A DNA stretch of 64,000 nucleotides. Source: an uncultured Chloroflexia bacterium (GTDB taxonomy: Bacteria; Chloroflexota; Limnocylindria; Limnocylindrales; CSP1-4). Every line of letters begins with the position of its first letter. The stretch's first letter is position 1. The stretch covers positions 64,001 to 128,000 of the forward strand of contig CAVVJT010000002.1 of the NCBI GenBank assembly GCA_963748625.1. Reading direction: 5' to 3'. The notes under the pieces were generated by a model. That model made no database searches. It was not told where the DNA came from and worked only from the letters and a program-made list of their open reading frames with translations. The translations under genes were made by a program, and so were the position numbers. Positions 17,733-25,631 of the stretch are shown one piece after another.

Positions 17733-17809
17733 GCCCCCATCGTCTAGAGGCCTAGGACGCCGCCCTTTCAAGGCGGAGATCACCGGTTCGAATCCGGTTG
17801 GGGGTACCA
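17733..17809 (+). tRNA. tRNA-Glu (TTC)
   Basis: Acceptor stem GCCCCCA/TGGGGGT, anticodon arm CCGCC-CTTTCAA-GGCGG, T-arm ACCGG-TTCGAAT-CCGGT, encoded CCA. Confidence 0.97.
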
Positions 17810-17855
17810 CCGTCGCGACCCGCCACGGCGCTCGCCGATGCGGCATCCTGCAGGC

Positions 17856-18812
17856 ATGAGCATCGTCCCGTTCGCCGACGAGCACGTCCCGGCGGCCGCG
17901 GCCCTCGCCGCTGCTGGTGTCGAGCGCCTGCGCCGGCGCGTTCCCGCCCTTCCCGATGCGTGGACGGATCCTCTCATCGTCGCCCCGGTGCTCCACCGAC
18001 TCGTGGAGCAGGGGACCGGCCTCGCGGTCCTCGACGACGGCGAGCTGCTGGCGTTCCAGGCGGGCAGGGTGCTCGACGGGCACGGCGGCAAGTGGTCGTA
18101 CACGCCCGATGTCGGTCATGCGGCACCCGCCTCCGGCTCCGGGCGCATGCGCGAGCGCCTGTACACGGGCCTCGCCGAGACCTGGGTGCGGGGCGCCTGC
18201 CCGGAGCACGTGATCACCACCCTCGCGGACGACGGGGATGCCCAGGGCGTGCTCGCCCGGCTGGGCTTCGGTCACGTCGTGGTGGACCTGGTGCGCGACC
18301 TGGCCCCTGTGGAGGACGTGGTGCTGCCCGACGGTGTGCAGGTGCGTCAGGCGGAGCCACGCGACGCGGGTGCCCTCGTGACCCTGGACGCCGGGCTGCG
18401 CCGCCACCTCCAGGCGTCGCCGGTGTTCCTGCGCCTGGGACCTGCCCCGACGCTCGAGGTCCAGCGCAGGCACGTGGAGGACCCGGCCCAGGCCATCTTC
18501 GTGGCCGAGCGTGAGGGACGACCAGTGGCCTGCCTGCGTATCGGCCCGTGCGCCAACGACGTGGCGATGGTGGTGCGTGATCCGGGGACCGCCAGCATCA
18601 CCGGCGCGTTCACGGACCCCACCCTGCGTGGCTGGGGCGTGGGCACGGCGCTGCTCGCCGCGGCCGTCGCCTGGGCCGAGGAGCACGGGTACGCCCGATG
18701 CGCGGTCGATCACGAATTGGCCAACCGTGAGGCAGGTCGCTTCTGGGTCCGGCACTTCACGCCGGTGGCGCTCTCGATGGGCCGGCGGCTCGCGCACACG
18801 GCCCTGACCTGA
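17856..18812 (+). CDS. GNAT family N-acetyltransferase (probably two GNAT domains)
   Basis: PTLRGWGVGTALL acetyl-CoA motif A; NREAGRFW motif B. Confidence 0.85.
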   Translation: MSIVPFADEHVPAAAALAAAGVERLRRRVPALPDAWTDPLIVAPVLHRLVEQGTGLAVLDDGELLAFQAGRVLDGHGGKWSYTPDVGHAAPASGSGRMRERLYTGLAETWVRGACPEHVITTLADDGDAQGVLARLGFGHVVVDLVRDLAPVEDVVLPDGVQVRQAEPRDAGALVTLDAGLRRHLQASPVFLRLGPAPTLEVQRRHVEDPAQAIFVAEREGRPVACLRIGPCANDVAMVVRDPGTASITGAFTDPTLRGWGVGTALLAAAVAWAEEHGYARCAVDHELANREAGRFWVRHFTPVALSMGRRLAHTALT

Positions 18813-18838
18813 CCGGGTGCGGTGGTATCCTGCCTGCC

Positions 18839-19192
18839 GTGGAGATCATGGGCGTGACGATCCGCACCATCGTCAACGACAACGTCGCGATCCGCTGTGA
18901 CGGCTGCCGGGAGATCATCCCGGGAACGCCCTGGCGGGTGAACCTCCTTGACGTCGTCTCCCCCGAGGTGGCCGTCGGCTGGGCGGAGTCCACGCCCGTC
19001 AACCCCGGCCCCCACCAGTTCCACGGGGATCCCGCCTGCGTCAGGAGCTGGATGGCCGAGAAGGGCTACCTGTTCTGCCGCCGTGGCGAGGTGCGCGAGA
19101 TCATGCGCCCGGTCCTGCTGCCCACGGAGCCCGCGACCTTCGGTCTGTGCGACGGCATCCACCGCGACGATCACGAGTTCGTCCCGGCCTGA
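18839..19192 (+). CDS. Small Cys/His-rich putative Zn-binding protein
   Basis: CDGC...HQFHGDPAC and C...CDGIH..DH; GC3-biased codons; TG-G-TATCCT 7 nt before the GTG. Confidence 0.75.
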   Translation: MEIMGVTIRTIVNDNVAIRCDGCREIIPGTPWRVNLLDVVSPEVAVGWAESTPVNPGPHQFHGDPACVRSWMAEKGYLFCRRGEVREIMRPVLLPTEPATFGLCDGIHRDDHEFVPA

Positions 19193-19214
19193 ACCGGCGT
19201 CTGCGGCCCCGCGA

Positions 19215-19243
19215 TTGACGCGCGGCGCGACCTTTCCTACACT
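19215..19243 (+). promoter_or_regulatory. Sigma70-type promoter of the HTH/membrane protein operon
   Basis: TTGACG (19215-19220), 17-nt spacer, TACACT (19238-19243). Confidence 0.8.
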
Positions 19244-19265
19244 CGCCGCGCCCGGTCTCCGCGCG

Positions 19266-19290
19266 AACCTAGGTTTGCCTAGATTCTAGA
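19266..19290. promoter_or_regulatory. Candidate operator with three CTAG cores (AACCTAGGTTTGCCTAGATTCTAGA)
   Basis: Palindromes AACCTAGGTT and CTAGATTCTAG; direct repeats CCTAGRTT at a 10-bp period; AT-rich island in the 5' UTR. Confidence 0.6.
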
Positions 19291-19322
19291 CCCACGCCGA
19301 CCGGCTCCAGCCGGAGTCCCGC

Positions 19323-20024
19323 GTGTCGTCCCCCAGCTCTCCCCAGGATCGCCCTCGACCCGAACGCCTCGCCCTGGGCGAGGCGAGCCGCCTGCTGGGC
19401 GTTGACCCCGACACGCTCCGCCGCTGGGCCGACGAGGGTCGTGTGCCGGCCTTCACGACCCCGGGCGGCCACCGGCGCTTCGACCGGCGGGCGCTGGAGC
19501 GCCTGATCGAGGCCCGCCGCACGGGACCGGCGGGCGAGCTCGCCGCGTTCGGGGCCACACCGGACCGGCTGTCCGCGGCCTACCGGCGCCGGTATGGCGA
19601 GGCGCATGCGCTGGCCCCGGACCCGCGCACCACCGTACCCGACGCCGACCGCGAGTCCTTCCGCGAGACCGGCCGGCGCCTGGTGGACGCCCTCGTCCGC
19701 CACCTCGACGAGACCGGCACCGCCCGTGCGCTGGCCGAGCGCGAGGCCGTGGACCTGGCGGCACACCTGGGTGAGCGCCTGGCCCTGCACGGCGTGTCCC
19801 TCTCGGACGGCGTCTCGATGTTCGTGTCGGCCAGGCGCCCGTTCCTGGCCGAGCTGCGGGTCGTGGCCCGGCGGCGCGGCGTGGACTCGATGCGGGTGGC
19901 CGAGATCTACGACATCTCCACCGGGCTCCTCGACCGCCTCCTCATCGCATTCGTCGCGGGCTACGAGCTGGCCTCCAGGAACGCCCGCGGGTCGGCCGGT
20001 GCAAGCGGCTCGGAGCCGGCATGA
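19323..20024 (+). CDS. BldC/Xis-like (MerR-type HTH_17) DNA-binding protein with a C-terminal all-helical domain
   Basis: EASRLLGVDPDTLRRWADEGRVPAFTTPGGHRRF; GGAG RBS. Confidence 0.85.
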   Translation: MSSPSSPQDRPRPERLALGEASRLLGVDPDTLRRWADEGRVPAFTTPGGHRRFDRRALERLIEARRTGPAGELAAFGATPDRLSAAYRRRYGEAHALAPDPRTTVPDADRESFRETGRRLVDALVRHLDETGTARALAEREAVDLAAHLGERLALHGVSLSDGVSMFVSARRPFLAELRVVARRRGVDSMRVAEIYDISTGLLDRLLIAFVAGYELASRNARGSAGASGSEPA

Positions 20025-21103
20025 GCACCTGGGTGCCGGCTGTCACCTCCATCCTGGCCTTCACGTTCGCGGCCATGCTCCTCGACCAGTGGCGCGAGCG
20101 ACGCCACGGCTTCCAGCTCGTGTGGGCGTTCGGCATGCTCGCGTACGGCCTCGGGTCGGGCGCGGAGGCCGTCGCGGGGTTCACGGGTTGGACGGAGGCT
20201 GCCTACCGCCTCTGGTACCTCGCAGGTGCGGTCTGGACGGCCGGCTGGCTGGGCCTGGGAACGGCGTACCTGCTGGGGAAGACCCGCTTCGGCTACACCT
20301 ACGCGTTCCTGCTGGCCGTCTCGGGCCTGATCGCGCTCATGATCCGCAACAGCCCCAACTACGCGGGTGCCGGCCCGCTGCCGCTGCTGTACTTGATCGG
20401 CGCGGCGATCCTGGCCCTGGCGATCGCCGTGGAGACCTACTTCGGCAACGTGCGCTGGCCGTGGTTCGCGGGCGGGGCCGTCATCGCGGTCACGGTGCTG
20501 TCCGCGGTGCTGATGGTCCTCACGCCTCCGCTGCCGGCGCCCGGCTACTCCCTCAGCCCCACCACGGGCCAGCCGACCGGTGACCTGATGCCGGGCTACC
20601 TTCGCCTGCTCACGCCGCTGATGAACATCACGGGTGCGGGCTCCCTTGTGCTCGGCGCCGTCTTCTCGACCTACGTGTTCATGCCCAAGAAGCGCGTGCT
20701 GCCCTACTCGCTGGACCCGGACCAGAAGGGCGACGAGTTCCTGTTCAACCTGCTGATCGCCGTGGTGGCGATCCCGGTGAACCTGGTGGCCTCGCTGCCC
20801 GGCGCGTTCCGCGACCTGGTCGGCGGCAGGCTCCACCCCCGTGTTCCCGCGACCATCCTCATCGCGATCGGCGGCATGTTCCCGGCCATCACGGACTCGC
20901 TGCTGCGCGCGGGCAATGCGCAGTACGGCGCCCTGGGCAAGCTGCTGGGCGTGGTCTTCCTGTTCGCCGGGTTCCTGGTGTCCGCGGAGATCATCCGCGA
21001 GGTCCGGGTCCCGTTCACGCGTATCCGGCTGGGCACGCGGTCGCGGCGCCAGGCCCAGCGTGATGCGGTGGCCCCCGAGGCCGAGACCCAGGGCTCCCGC
21101 TGA
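20021..21103 (+). CDS. Polytopic membrane protein of unknown function
   Basis: About 9-10 hydrophobic segments; ATGA overlap with the HTH gene. Confidence 0.82.
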   Translation: MSTWVPAVTSILAFTFAAMLLDQWRERRHGFQLVWAFGMLAYGLGSGAEAVAGFTGWTEAAYRLWYLAGAVWTAGWLGLGTAYLLGKTRFGYTYAFLLAVSGLIALMIRNSPNYAGAGPLPLLYLIGAAILALAIAVETYFGNVRWPWFAGGAVIAVTVLSAVLMVLTPPLPAPGYSLSPTTGQPTGDLMPGYLRLLTPLMNITGAGSLVLGAVFSTYVFMPKKRVLPYSLDPDQKGDEFLFNLLIAVVAIPVNLVASLPGAFRDLVGGRLHPRVPATILIAIGGMFPAITDSLLRAGNAQYGALGKLLGVVFLFAGFLVSAEIIREVRVPFTRIRLGTRSRRQAQRDAVAPEAETQGSR

Positions 21104-21168
21104 GTTCCCAGGCTCCCGCTGGGACACCGCATGACGACCGTGCCCGTGGCCGACTATCCTCTCCGGCG

Positions 21169-21849
21169 ATGGACACTGCCGCGCTGATCCAGGCTGCCGA
21201 GGGCTCCCCGCCCCGCATCCGCGTACTCCTCGCCGATGACCACGGCGTGGTCCGCCGCGGGCTGCGCGCGTTCTTCGAGCTGCTCGATGACATCGAGATC
21301 GTCGGCGAGGCCGAGGACGGCCGGCACGCCGTGGACCTGGTGGAGGTGCTCCAGCCCGACGTGGTCCTCATGGACCTGCTGATGCCGGGCGTGGACGGGA
21401 TCGCCGCCACTGCCGAGATCAAGCGGCGCTGGCCCGAGGTGGAGGTCGTCGCGCTGACGAGCTTCATCGAGGAGGAGCGGGTGACCGCGGCCCTCGAGGC
21501 CGGGGCGACGGGCTACCTGCTCAAGGACGCCGATGCCGACGACGTGGCGACCGCGGTCCGGCGCGCCCATGCGGGCGAGGTGCACCTCGACCCGCAGGTG
21601 GCGCGCCTGCTGGCCACCCGCATCCGTGCCCGCAAGGAGCCTGCGGCCCCCGACCACGAGCCGCTCACCGAGCGCGAGCTCGAGGTGCTGCACCTGGTGG
21701 CCAAGGGCCATGCGAACAAGGAGATCGCGGCCCGGCTCTCCATCACGGAACGCACGGCCCGGACGCACGTGTCCAACATCCTGGGCAAGCTCGACCTGTC
21801 CAGCCGCACGCAGGCGGCGCTCTGGGCGATCGAGCACCGGATCGTCTGA
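21169..21849 (+). CDS. NarL/LuxR-family response regulator
   Basis: LADDH, PDVVLMDLLMP, GYLLKD, LTERELEVL...NKEIA...HVSNILGKL. Confidence 0.96.
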   Translation: MDTAALIQAAEGSPPRIRVLLADDHGVVRRGLRAFFELLDDIEIVGEAEDGRHAVDLVEVLQPDVVLMDLLMPGVDGIAATAEIKRRWPEVEVVALTSFIEEERVTAALEAGATGYLLKDADADDVATAVRRAHAGEVHLDPQVARLLATRIRARKEPAAPDHEPLTERELEVLHLVAKGHANKEIAARLSITERTARTHVSNILGKLDLSSRTQAALWAIEHRIV

Positions 21850-23621: not shown

Positions 23622-23714
23622 CGTGGCGGGCCTGAACGGGCCCGCACGCCGCCGTGCGGTAGGATGCCCCGACGGCACCCGCCACACGCAGCGCAGAGGG
23701 GAGACGACACCACC

Positions 23715-25631
23715 GTGACCGAGATCGGAAGCGTCCTGGGCGGCCGCTACCGCCTGGTCGAGCTTCTCGGCCAAGGCGGGATGGCGACCATCTATCGTGC
23801 GCGTGACGCCCAGCTGGACCGTGATGTCGCCGTCAAGCTGTTGCGCCCGGAGTTCGGGCAGGACCCGGACTTCCTCGCCCGCTTCCGCGACGAGGCCCGT
23901 GCCGCCGCCTCCCTGAACCACCCCAACATCGTCGCGGTCTTCGACTTCGGCGAGGGTGAGGACGGCCCCTACATCGTGATGGAGCTGATCGACGGCCAGG
24001 ACCTGGGCGCGATCATCCGCGAGAATGGCGCCCTGCCGCCGCGCCAGGCCGCGCGTGTGACGGCCGAGACCGCGAAGGCGCTCCACGCCGCCCACGTGAA
24101 GGGCATCGTCCACCGCGACGTGAAGCCGTCCAACGTGCTCATCGGTCGCGACGGACGCGTGAAGGTCGCGGACTTCGGCATCGCGCGTGCCATCACCGAG
24201 GCCCAACTCACGCTGCCGGGCGTCACGATGGGCTCGGTCCACTACTTCAGCCCGGAGCAGGCGCGGGGCGAGACCGCCACGATCTCGTCGGACATCTACT
24301 CCCTGGGCATCGTCCTCTATGAGTGCCTGACCGCCCAGCGCCCGTTCTCGGGAGACGGCGCGGCCGCCGTGGCGCTCGCCCGCCTGACCTCAACACCCCC
24401 GCGACCGTCCGCACTCCGCCCGGGCACCCCGACTGAGCTCGATGCGATCGTGACCCGCGCCATGGCGCTCGACCCGGCCGCCCGCTACGCCTCTGCGGCG
24501 TCGATGGCCAGCGCGCTCGAGGGCTGGCTGGCGGCTCCCTCCGCCCAGCCGGGCGCCGCGGCAGGTGCTGCGGTCGCCGGTGCGGCCATCGTGGGCGCCG
24601 CCACGGTGGCCAGCGCACAGGCTCGTCCGAACGCCGTGCCCTACCCGCCCGACGCCTACGCCCGCGCGACACCGCCGTCGGCACCCGTCACCACGCGCTC
24701 CGCCCCGCCCCCGCCGCCCGTCGACGTGGACCAGGGGGACGATGAGGGCGGCGCCGGACCGTGGGCCTGGGCCGCCGGCATCCTGGGGATCGTGATCCTC
24801 GCGATCGTCGGCTTCCTCATCTTCCAGATGCTGACGGGCGGGTCGGACGGCCCGACGGCCTCCGCCTCGCCCGACGCCTCGCCCGTGGCGGTTCCGTCGC
24901 TGGTGAACCTCCTGTATGCCGATGCCGAGGCCGCGGCTGCCGAGCTCGGCCTGACCGTGACCCGGGCTGCCACTGAGCCGCGCACGGACGTGGAGCCCGA
25001 CACGGTGCTCGCCCAGGACCCGCCCGCGGGCCAGGCGGTGGCGCCCGGCACGGAGCTCAAGCTCACGGTGTCCGTGGGCAAGGTCGCAGTGTCCACACCC
25101 AGCATCGTGGGGATCCCGGAGAACCAGGCGGTCCAGACGATCGTCCAGGAAGGACTGACGGTCGGGGCGCGGACCGAGGCGTTCGACCCGATGGTGCCGG
25201 CGGGATCGGTGGTGAGCCAGAACCCCCAGGCCGGGATCTTCGTGAACCCCGAGACCCCGGTGGACTACGTGGTCTCGAAGGGCCCGGAACCCACCCCGTC
25301 CCCGACGCCGGAACCCACGCCGACCCCGACGCCCACCCCAACCCCGACCCCGACCCCCACCCCGACCCCCACCCCGACCCCGACGCCTACCCCCACGCCC
25401 GCCCCGATCAACGTCGGCGACTACCGGTGCGTGACGCTCGATGAGGCCACCACCAACATCGACGTTGACACGTTCACGTTGGGCGACGTCACCACGCTGA
25501 CGCCAGGTGGAACCTATGACCAGGCGTGGGTCGTAGTGGACCAGAAGCCCAACCCGGGCACCAAGAGGCCCGGGGGCACGGCGATCGACCTGGTCGTCGA
25601 GGATCCCGCACTGGTCACCACCTGCCCCTGA
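23715..25631 (+). CDS. pknB: PASTA-domain Ser/Thr protein kinase (PknB/Stk1-type)
   Basis: LGQGGMA, VAVK, HRDVKPSN, DFG, SPEQARG; one TM; two PASTA repeats, PT linker, third PASTA-like domain. Confidence 0.93.
   Translation: MTEIGSVLGGRYRLVELLGQGGMATIYRARDAQLDRDVAVKLLRPEFGQDPDFLARFRDEARAAASLNHPNIVAVFDFGEGEDGPYIVMELIDGQDLGAIIRENGALPPRQAARVTAETAKALHAAHVKGIVHRDVKPSNVLIGRDGRVKVADFGIARAITEAQLTLPGVTMGSVHYFSPEQARGETATISSDIYSLGIVLYECLTAQRPFSGDGAAAVALARLTSTPPRPSALRPGTPTELDAIVTRAMALDPAARYASAASMASALEGWLAAPSAQPGAAAGAAVAGAAIVGAATVASAQARPNAVPYPPDAYARATPPSAPVTTRSAPPPPPVDVDQGDDEGGAGPWAWAAGILGIVILAIVGFLIFQMLTGGSDGPTASASPDASPVAVPSLVNLLYADAEAAAAELGLTVTRAATEPRTDVEPDTVLAQDPPAGQAVAPGTELKLTVSVGKVAVSTPSIVGIPENQAVQTIVQEGLTVGARTEAFDPMVPAGSVVSQNPQAGIFVNPETPVDYVVSKGPEPTPSPTPEPTPTPTPTPTPTPTPTPTPTPTPTPTPTPAPINVGDYRCVTLDEATTNIDVDTFTLGDVTTLTPGGTYDQAWVVVDQKPNPGTKRPGGTAIDLVVEDPALVTTCP
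25288..25403 (+). repeat. Coding 6-bp repeat encoding a (PT)n linker in the kinase
   Basis: CCNACN units; protein PTPSPTPEPTPTPTPT... Confidence 0.9.

Follow-up and report, generated by a model that had tools for sequence, protein, structure and literature searches.

The 64,000-nucleotide (nt) window analysed here, that is the whole stretch of which a piece stands above, lies on contig 2 of an uncultured Chloroflexia assembly of 10 contigs and 4,626,308 bases. At 19215-21103 it carries a promoter, a pair of direct repeats and two overlapping genes, encoding a helix-turn-helix (HTH) regulator and a polytopic membrane protein. We consider it probable that these elements form a one-component regulatory operon, composed of a sensor repressor and a seven-transmembrane (7TM) output and tied to tetrapyrrole/haem homeostasis. 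The regulator, operator and operon part of this mechanism is put forward with good confidence. The direct repeats are the conserved operator candidate, and the CTAG tetranucleotides embedded in them are not its essence. The features of the locus are the following.

19215-19243, + strand: sigma-70-like promoter TTGACG-17-TACACT (TTGACG at 19215-19220, 17-nt spacer, TACACT at 19238-19243)
19244-19266, + strand: presumed transcription start region with the conserved CC.CCGG block of the leader alignment (start probably near 19250)
19267-19286, + strand: operator candidate, direct repeats ACCTAGGTTT / GCCTAGATTC with period 10 (about +17 to +37 of the presumed start)
19286-19291, + strand: third CTAG / TCTAGA palindrome, without counterpart in the other 19 genus loci
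19313-19316, + strand: Shine-Dalgarno GGAG, 6-8 nt 5′ of the conserved GTG in the aligned leaders
19323-20024, + strand: regulator gene, 233 amino acids (aa), GTG start; predicted winged HTH at about 13-67 and all-helical C-terminal domain at about 98-227
20021-21103, + strand: membrane protein gene, 360 aa; predicted 7TM-receptor-like core with two inserted helices and a cytoplasmic insert
18839-19192, + strand: syntenic upstream gene, 117 aa, Cys/His-rich, no Pfam family (context gene)

Close homologues (75-78% identity) are found in metagenome-assembled genomes that carry the NCBI names 'Candidatus Limnocylindrales bacterium' or 'Chloroflexota bacterium'.

Direct repeats downstream of the promoter

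The regulator gene is separated from the upstream 117-aa gene by a 130-nt spacer. A single promoter-like site was found in 18800-21400, compared to a mean of 0.1 in 50 shuffles. The sequence AACCTAGGTTTGCCTAGATTCTAGA lies at 19267-19291, 23 bases past the -10 box, and includes three CTAGs at 19269, 19279 and 19286. This tetranucleotide is strongly avoided genome-wide, with 1,096 copies in 4,626,308 bases and an observed/expected ratio of 0.09. Three copies within 25 nt occur at this array alone in the genome, for a Poisson expectation of 0.014. The near-consensus promoter and the three-CTAG array, both pointed out in an earlier sequence-only reading of this DNA, are thus confirmed, and the triple cluster is unique in the 4.6-Mb genome. 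The window includes 21 CTAGs in total, among which those at 17744 and 17752 form a pair 8 nt apart, located between open reading frames (ORFs) ending at about 17633 and starting at 17838.

The array comprises two repeat units, ACCTAGGTTT (19267-19276) and GCCTAGATTC (19277-19286), and therefore has a period of 10. We aligned the leaders of the 20 best-scoring loci of the genus, taken from 40 matching genomes among the 41 searched. They share a fixed order: TTGACG, 17-18 nt, CCTACACTCGC, the CC.CCGG block, about 15 variable bases, the repeats (aCC.AG.TTT.Cc.Ag.TT), about 40 further variable bases, GGAG and GTG. TTGACG and CCTACACTCGC are kept in at least 90% of these leaders and the repeat pattern, which reads CCNAGRTTT twice, in 20/20. 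Both repeats are also present, 3′ of a TTGAC-type promoter, in each of the five loci that represent four further genera of the family. Direct repeats spaced by one helical turn, as proposed earlier, are therefore well conserved, in the form CC(T/C)AGRTT.

The same alignment does not support a role of CTAG as such. Of the 20 loci, just 5 (L001, L002, L003, L014 and L019) carry the tetranucleotide in the region of the repeats, CCCAG being the commonest form, and two of the five (L002 and L003) have an additional CTAG inside the -10 box. Neither the third CTAG nor the two palindromes has a counterpart among the other 19 genus loci in the leader alignment. Thus, the earlier expectation that the array is conserved in orthologues holds for the direct repeats, and does not hold for the CTAG motif, the third copy and both palindromes.

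To what extent the site recurs in the host genome can be judged from a weight matrix built without the window's own site. The window's site scored 29.7 bits; elsewhere in the 4.6-Mb genome no site exceeded 18.5 bits. A 17.9-bit match lies about 120 nt 5′ of the genome's own paralogue of the membrane gene; it is not kept upstream of the paralogue in five other genomes and is regarded as unconfirmed. A looser pattern, AG[AG]TT-N4-6-AG[AG]TT, gave 11 matches genome-wide against 5-13 in shuffles, and does not indicate a larger regulon. AGATT-type pairs are restricted in this genome to the leaders of two regulator genes and to one further site (C10:1239473).

Similar repeats accompany distant paralogues of the regulator. 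Gene contexts outside the window were taken from unannotated genomes with crude ORF calls; counts derived from the searches are lower bounds, and related genomes are not independent. In paralogues linked to hemA, the glutamyl-tRNA reductase (GluTR) gene, tandem (T/C)AG(A/G)TTT repeats are located between the -10 box and the start codon. They were recognised by eye in 17 of 19 such loci (10 families), with up to four or five copies, and a strict pattern (AG[AG][AT]T-4-7 nt-AG[AG][AT]T within 170 nt upstream) was found in 13/19 against 0.13 in shuffles. The strict pattern was also present in 2/8 Limnocylindria paralogues and in 2/5 orthologues of family f1. Since distant paralogues carry tandem TAGATTT-type repeats upstream, autoregulation is likely a family trait. 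The position of the repeats at about +17 to +37, taking transcription to start about 7 nt past the -10 box, suggests repression. Accordingly with the earlier reading, autoregulation would be exerted at this site, as judged by the repeats conserved 5′ of orthologues and paralogues; what does not carry over is the CTAG array itself.

The regulator and its two domains

The N-terminal part of the regulator matches HTH_17 (4.8e-12) and MerR (2.2e-10) in Pfam, the MerR models covering residues 18-61 only, and TIGR01764 'excise' with 36.7 bits, above the cut-off of 28.8. Its best sequence relatives in the PDB are the BldC-DNA chains 6amk and 6ama, with E values of 6.5e-6 and 2.2e-5 for the single sequence and of 2.3e-13 and 5.1e-13 for a 30-member family profile. 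In the AlphaFold2 model (pLDDT 71; 74-81 in the HTH region), residues 13-64 superpose on 6amk_A over 52/52 residues with a VIA Z of 8.3, a root-mean-square deviation (rmsd) of 1.1 Å and 35% identity. Foldseek gave TM-scores on target of 0.82-0.89 for BldC-type winged HTHs, and excisionases (Xis) of phages and of integrative and conjugative elements rank behind BldC in VIA (4j2n, Z 7.6). Residues 15-61 are nearly all invariant in 25 homologues whose overall identity is 71-88%, and the VDP.T..RWA..G....GGHRR signature occupies residues 27-52. Sequence and structure matches thus agree in assigning the domain to the BldC/Xis-like type, as had been proposed from the signature.

[quoted passage not shown] Beyond the common winged HTH fold and the GGHRR motif, the DNA sites are alike: according to the available sections of the BldC study (PMC5859096), the protein binds head-to-tail on AATTXXXX(C) repeats, and its whiI and smeA sites are AT-rich direct repeats with a period of about 10 bp, the whiI site carrying AATT and GATT 10 bp apart. 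The repeat core differs, being TAGRTTT here and AATT-N4-C in BldC, and so does the apparent scope, with a local regulator and one strong genomic site here in contrast to a pleiotropic developmental regulator in Streptomyces. BldC is a 68-residue single domain without effector domain.

Classical MerR proteins bind a palindrome within a 19-20-bp spacer, whereas here the spacer is 17 nt and the direct repeat lies 3′ of the -10 box. They also combine a coiled-coil dimer with an effector domain, in contrast to the regulator, in which matches to MerR models are confined to the HTH. A further parallel is offered by the light-responsive MerR-type repressors CarH/LitR (5c8d, 5c8e), which likewise have a helical bundle behind an N-terminal MerR-like HTH; their ligand is a tetrapyrrole. 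The cobalamin-binding 8jbs is the second-best HTH sequence match (E 1.7e-5 for the single sequence and 5.8e-11 for the profile), and CarH is the top Foldseek row (E 5e-3) with whole-model TM-scores of just about 0.2. CarH binds a promoter-overlapping operator as a tetramer. However, no B12-binding family was found in the regulator by Pfam at E <= 0.1, and the protein ends at residue 233. It also falls outside the BldC family, by its score as well as by its architecture, and is not a member of the classical MerR, Xis or CarH groups.

The C-terminal domain (residues about 98-227) is modelled by AlphaFold2 as six or seven helices. Pfam RsbRD_N (PF14361) matches it with E 0.038 and 15.1 bits, below the cut-off of 24.3, and precomputed annotations assign PF14361 to most homologues. 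The family profile reaches pXO2-61 (3pmc) with E 0.0031; with a profile of the C-terminal domain only, 3pmc is the top match (E 0.0091 over about 105 positions, with a common F.D..L motif). VIA listed three RsbR-type structures (3pmc Z 6.5, 3zta Z 6.2, 2bnl Z 5.3), at values within the noise range of helical bundles. The resemblance to RsbRD-N/non-haem globin sensors noted from the sequence is thus retained in weak form.

The RsbR-type sensors (2bnl, the N-terminal domain of RsbR, 3zta of the Moorella stressosome and 3pmc of B. anthracis) are likewise all-helical domains of about 130 aa without conserved proximal His. According to the available sections of PMC8717448, RsbR-type globins bind fatty acid through a conserved Arg. 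Among 39 members of the present family, R171 is the one invariant Arg, R114, D204 and L207 being nearly so; in the HMMER alignment R171 does not face an Arg of 3pmc. The RsbR-type domain is fused to a STAS or kinase-inhibiting module and here to a DNA-binding domain. A combination of HTH_17 with photoglobin, together with B12 domains, exists as described in the same source (PMC8717448). The haem-binding HTH-PAS protein FG214 was considered as a relative and set aside, since it belongs to a different family as presented in the accessible part of that report (bioRxiv 10.64898/2026.03.15.711900).

Gene contexts of the two families

In all 20 genus loci the HTH gene lies directly 5′ of the membrane gene. 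In the window, the TGA of the former overlaps the ATG of the latter (ATGA, 4 nt), and among the 19 genus loci for which spacing could be computed, 8 show a 4-nt overlap, 8 a gap of 1-6 nt and 3 a gap of 19-34 nt. We then considered a sample of 301 Chloroflexota genomes, with thresholds of E <= 1e-10 for the regulator and E <= 1e-5 for the membrane family. The regulator family was matched in 134/301 genomes and the membrane family in 140/301. Genomes flagged as unpublished (G266, G310, G212; also G078 and G184), on which no locus-level claim rests, count towards the tallies of 140/301 and 190/301; the regulator and membrane tallies contain three and five such genomes, respectively. No more than 1.5 kb separates the two genes in at least 15 genomes (seven of f1, own genome included, seven of f9 and one of f20), a count made among the matches listed, to which 64 further membrane matches do not belong; 13 of these loci were confirmed. 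In a maximum-likelihood tree of 39 regulators, the 7TM-linked members form three groups nested among the hemA-linked ones (support 100/100 for f1 and 100/99 for f9, with f20 on a long branch), and the well-supported branches force at least two context changes. The co-location of the two genes is thus verified, in 20/20 genus loci and in at least two separate regulator clades.

The membrane gene also occurs without the regulator. Most genus genomes carry a membrane paralogue (50-54% identical) 31-47 kb away, and no HTH gene was found within 3 kb of it in 12 loci. Genomes of family f2, of 1.1 Mb, retain one membrane gene (16/16, and 2/2 in the phylum sample), and the two f2 genomes searched gave no HTH match; at the one f2 locus scanned (L027) a nucleotidyltransferase gene lies 3′ of it. 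In family f3 both genes are present yet non-adjacent among the listed cases (15/15 genomes with a match). Since the membrane gene is found without the regulator, both as a paralogue and in streamlined relatives, it looks like a regulated cargo more than an obligate partner. The own-genome membrane paralogue (contig 2, 130833-131854, - strand, about 3 kb past the window end; locus L021) is split into two frames with a break at about residue 260; this could be a frameshift, a pseudogene or a fault of the assembly. Elsewhere in the genus the intact paralogue stands 3′ of DUF1365 and cyclopropane-fatty-acid-synthase-like genes and 5′ of an MgtE-like gene.

The commonest identified context of the regulator family is a different one. 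In the host genome a regulator paralogue of 42% identity overlaps the start of the GluTR gene by 4 nt, and the same arrangement was observed in G146, G292, G128 and G119. Comparison of coordinates added 24 genomes, representing at least 10 additional families, in which the regulator lies on the same strand within 1 kb 5′ of a GlutR_N match, so that the arrangement is present in at least 29 of the 134 regulator-bearing genomes and in at least 12 families. These counts were made among the matches listed and are lower bounds, a further 48 GluTR matches standing outside the list; all 18 loci examined were confirmed by tblastn. In eight more genomes the regulator and GluTR genes are 1.7-4 kb apart. 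In addition, G128 has a second, divergent paralogue 5′ of a HemQ-like gene (Chlor_dismutase 1.3e-47; HemQ_actino 112 bits, below cut-off). At L046 (G128) and L047 (G292) two regulator paralogues stand head to head, one of them followed by hemA in each; in G292 the gene behind the other paralogue matched no family. The own-genome hemA-linked paralogue (contig 4, 442611-443237, - strand; L050 2061-2795) carries four tandem AG(G/A/C)TT-type repeats upstream, its candidate operator lying at about 443270-443310, and FeoA/FeoB-like genes lie divergent, upstream of it.

Short homologues of the membrane protein were sampled at 74 loci outside the class, taken in E-value order and skipping two unpublished genomes. 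In 9 of the 74, belonging to families f27 and f8, hemD lies on the same strand at most two ORFs upstream of the 7TM gene: all six sampled f27 genomes show the order hemC-hemD-7TM (one with a 4-nt overlap), and 3/5 f8 genomes the order cobA/hemD-7TM. Regulator paralogues 5′ of hemA in at least 29 genomes and short 7TM homologues behind hemC-hemD in two families are new observations. DtxR-like iron repressors adjoin the 7TM gene in 4/74 loci (L098, L103, L133 and L139, from two families), with Nramp or FTR1 iron transporters near. The other 61 sampled loci show unrelated neighbours. Apparent hemL genes beside the 7TM gene were rejected, as they encode GabT/ArgD-like class-III aminotransferases according to NCBIfam (L081, L083, L114, L121 and L141) or according to Pfam only (L120 and L122); a URO-D match in L072 was discarded for want of NCBIfam support. 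In f9 the regulator-7TM pair is found behind or beside a PucC-family gene of the major facilitator superfamily (MFS) at L033 and L039.

The membrane protein, the proposed mechanism and its alternatives

Neither Pfam nor NCBIfam assigned the membrane protein to a family; a PDB sequence search gave no match at E <= 10 and Foldseek of the model against the PDB nothing at E <= 0.001. In the Atlas it falls near unnamed Chloroflexota clusters only, the nearest named cluster being HisKA_7TM (score 0.81). The AlphaFold2 model (pLDDT 81.5, pTM 0.79) shows ten long helices. Homologues outside the class are 230-300 aa long and match in three blocks (2-109, 145-226 and 272-347), and one of them (L033, 242 aa) would read as 7TM with an N-out/C-in topology by the positive-inside rule. 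Compared to these, the Limnocylindria form is longer by two helices and by an insert of about 45 aa on the cytoplasmic side. Since the short homologues appear to have seven helices, the protein is predicted to have nine membrane crossings and one interfacial helix; the initial estimate of about ten transmembrane segments is matched by the number of long helices and is revised as to crossings.

Invariant residues include R28, W35, G56, W57, R63, W65, R195, G205, G212, A213, S216, R274 and P288. One of 22 members matches 7TMR-DISM_7TM (PF07695) with E 0.0016, and the window's protein does not. A wide VIA comparison returned GPCR-like rows only, with Z 11-13 and rmsd 4-5 Å, which is the noise level for helical bundles. 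The protein may be a 7TM-receptor-like member of a family without prior description. As in 7TMR-DISM_7TM and HisKA_7TM (PF16927), seven core helices with an N-out/C-in orientation would be present; here, no output domain is fused to them.

Taken together, these results are consistent with the following mechanism. The regulator would combine a BldC-type winged HTH with a helical, RsbR-like ligand-sensing domain. Two protomers arranged head-to-tail, or a short filament, would bind both TAGRTTT-type repeats just 3′ of the -10 box, and the bound protein would most probably repress its own bicistronic transcript. A small-molecule signal would alter DNA binding and lead to derepression. This signal could be a small hydrophobic or carboxylate-bearing molecule linked with tetrapyrrole metabolism, and the 7TM-receptor-like membrane protein encoded by the second gene would be the regulated output. 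Since the commonest identified context of the regulator family is 5′ of hemA and short 7TM homologues stand behind hemC-hemD, the module most likely belongs to tetrapyrrole/haem homeostasis.

Several observations weigh against this proposal, in addition to the noise-level VIA matches of the C-terminal domain. With NCBIfam HTH_BldC (NF033787) the regulator scores 48.6 bits (E 5.4e-13), below the cut-off of 77, and at 233 aa, instead of about 70, it carries an extra sensor-like domain of about 150 aa compared to BldC. None of 25 homologues matches RsbRD_N at E <= 0.01. The C-terminal domain has no invariant His or Cys among the 39 members, which makes classical haem ligation unlikely. The strict repeat pattern was found within 170 nt upstream in 0/8 of the 7TM-paired regulators of f9/f20; at several of these loci, as seen at L033, L034, L037 and L038, the regulator gene lies directly 3′ of another gene, so that its promoter is presumably elsewhere. 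Families f13 (18 genomes) and f23 (20 genomes) carry the regulator away from hemA, G164 and G323, both with an HTH-7TM pair, gave no GluTR match, and in 65 of the 74 sampled 7TM loci no haem gene lies within two ORFs. The layout of the locus, its conservation and the gene contexts were observed; DNA binding, the sign of regulation, the ligand and the haem link are inferred. The haem link is real as a pattern of gene context, and a functional connection with haem is plausible, a shade short of probable.

A more specific version would make the regulator and the 7TM protein a novel haem homeostasis system of Chloroflexota. The regulator would sense haem, a porphyrin or an intermediate and repress hemA, hemQ and the 7TM gene through TAGATTT repeats, the 7TM protein being a counterpart of HemX. 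We consider this version tentative and on the unlikely side. According to the available sections of a 2024 review (PMC10991733), HemX is an integral membrane protein encoded in the hemAXCDBL operon, which lowers GluTR levels in response to haem. HemX of B. subtilis and S. aureus is alike in being a polytopic membrane protein without catalytic domain, encoded in haem-synthesis operons. However, no sequence relation was found: none of 22 members of the present family convincingly matches cytochrome c assembly or any other family at E <= 5; the analogy is one of context, and the window's copy lies outside a haem operon. The haem-synthesis regulators listed in those sections are HemX, HrrSA, ChrSA, DtxR, IdeR, SpxA1 and PerR. 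No BldC-like or globin-fused hemA regulator is described in the literature consulted, including this review (PMC10991733) within its available sections and apart from its supplements.

If this haem-system version is true, the common repeat motif would make cross-talk between paralogues possible, and the 7TM protein would adjust GluTR or handle tetrapyrroles at the membrane. A true haem link would make the regulator the first candidate for transcriptional control of haem synthesis in Chloroflexota. The regulator family would also show BldC-style DNA binding coupled to a ligand sensor, with a conserved operator available, and would give a functional handle on an unannotated 7TM family present in 140/301 sampled genomes.

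The role of the membrane protein could be a different one. It was suggested from the sequence that it is the signal input or the sequestration partner of the regulator: a 7TM receptor would dock the C-terminal domain of the regulator at the membrane and release it upon a signal. In its favour, the two genes are conserved as neighbours, this arrangement arose at least twice, and they overlap or nearly do; the protein is predicted to have a receptor-like N-out/C-in 7TM core with a basic C-terminal tail and has no enzymatic or output domain, the 7TMR-DISM_7TM match and the HisKA_7TM score pointing the same way. However, f2 and the paralogue show the membrane gene without the regulator, in f3 the two are non-adjacent, most regulator homologues with an identified context stand beside hemA with no membrane gene, and the receptor-like fold matches are at the level of unrelated helical bundles. 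We therefore did not retain this part of the sequence-only reading and consider it unlikely. A complex prediction with membrane protein residues 1-345 and regulator residues 76-230, run without controls, gave ipSAE values of 0.00 and 0.00 and carries no weight either way.

Somewhat less likely still, the membrane protein could be a transporter of unrecognised fold, with for example a tetrapyrrole, a metal or some other metabolite as substrate, and the HTH protein would be a local repressor responsive to that substrate. The layout of a local regulator followed by a polytopic membrane gene is that of many regulator-exporter pairs, and one source labels two close homologues 'MFS family permease'. 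The helices contain conserved residues that are charged or polar (E49, R63, R195, N202 and R274), and the DtxR-like and hemD neighbours described above would fit such a function. On the other hand, neither an MFS nor another transporter family was found by Pfam or NCBIfam (MFS: 0/22 members at E <= 5), no transporter fold stood out with Foldseek or VIA, and the short homologues have just seven helices. The MFS has a 12-helix two-fold architecture, in contrast to the ten helices of the model. For the membrane protein, we thus keep to a regulated output with a receptor-like core.

The repeats could also work at the level of the mRNA leader, by forming a structure or a protein site that controls translation, instead of serving as a DNA operator. 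Lying 3′ of the -10 box, they are probably transcribed, which counts against the operator reading, and in many orthologues base pairing is possible between a 5′ CUCCGG and the CCGGAG Shine-Dalgarno region. Yet Rfam gave no match at E <= 1 in 19100-19500 (three matches at E 2-5.1 are far under gathering scores), RNAalifold predicted 0 pairs for 19 leaders, and the helix between the 5′ end and the Shine-Dalgarno region had 75.0% of its cells paired, compared to 72.6% for shuffles, and 48 of the 500 shuffles reached as high a value. The 10-bp period and direct-repeat symmetry fit a DNA-binding protein, and we regard control at the RNA level as very improbable. That the HTH protein is the Xis of a mobile element, with the repeats as recombination-directionality sites, is hardly credible: the TIGR01764 score, homologues named 'excisionase family DNA binding protein' by sources and the closeness of Xis structures (4j2n) are outweighed by the lack of an integrase family among the ORFs scanned at 17.8-23.6 kb, by ordinary neighbours (GNAT, the 117-aa gene, response regulator, hydrolase and nucleotidyltransferase), by synteny across genera and families, and by the 150-aa extra domain and members in haem operons.

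Returning to the operon and its surroundings, the 117-aa gene stands 5′ of the regulator or of the membrane gene in 29/31 related loci; in f2, with its 1.1-Mb genomes, it adjoins the membrane gene directly on the 5′ side. It may be the real conserved partner of the membrane protein. Its invariant features (CxxC, NPGP, VREIMRP and GLCDGxHxDxHE) may form a metal-binding site. On the other side, a NarL-type response regulator (21169-21849, + strand), with no histidine kinase adjoining, follows the membrane gene; it does so in just 9/31 related loci and is therefore a variable insertion, and the alpha/beta hydrolase gene 3′ of it is present in 20/31. Further along, the ORF list includes a PknB-like Ser/Thr kinase (23664-25631, + strand) with a long (TP)n repeat 5′ of its C-terminal domain.

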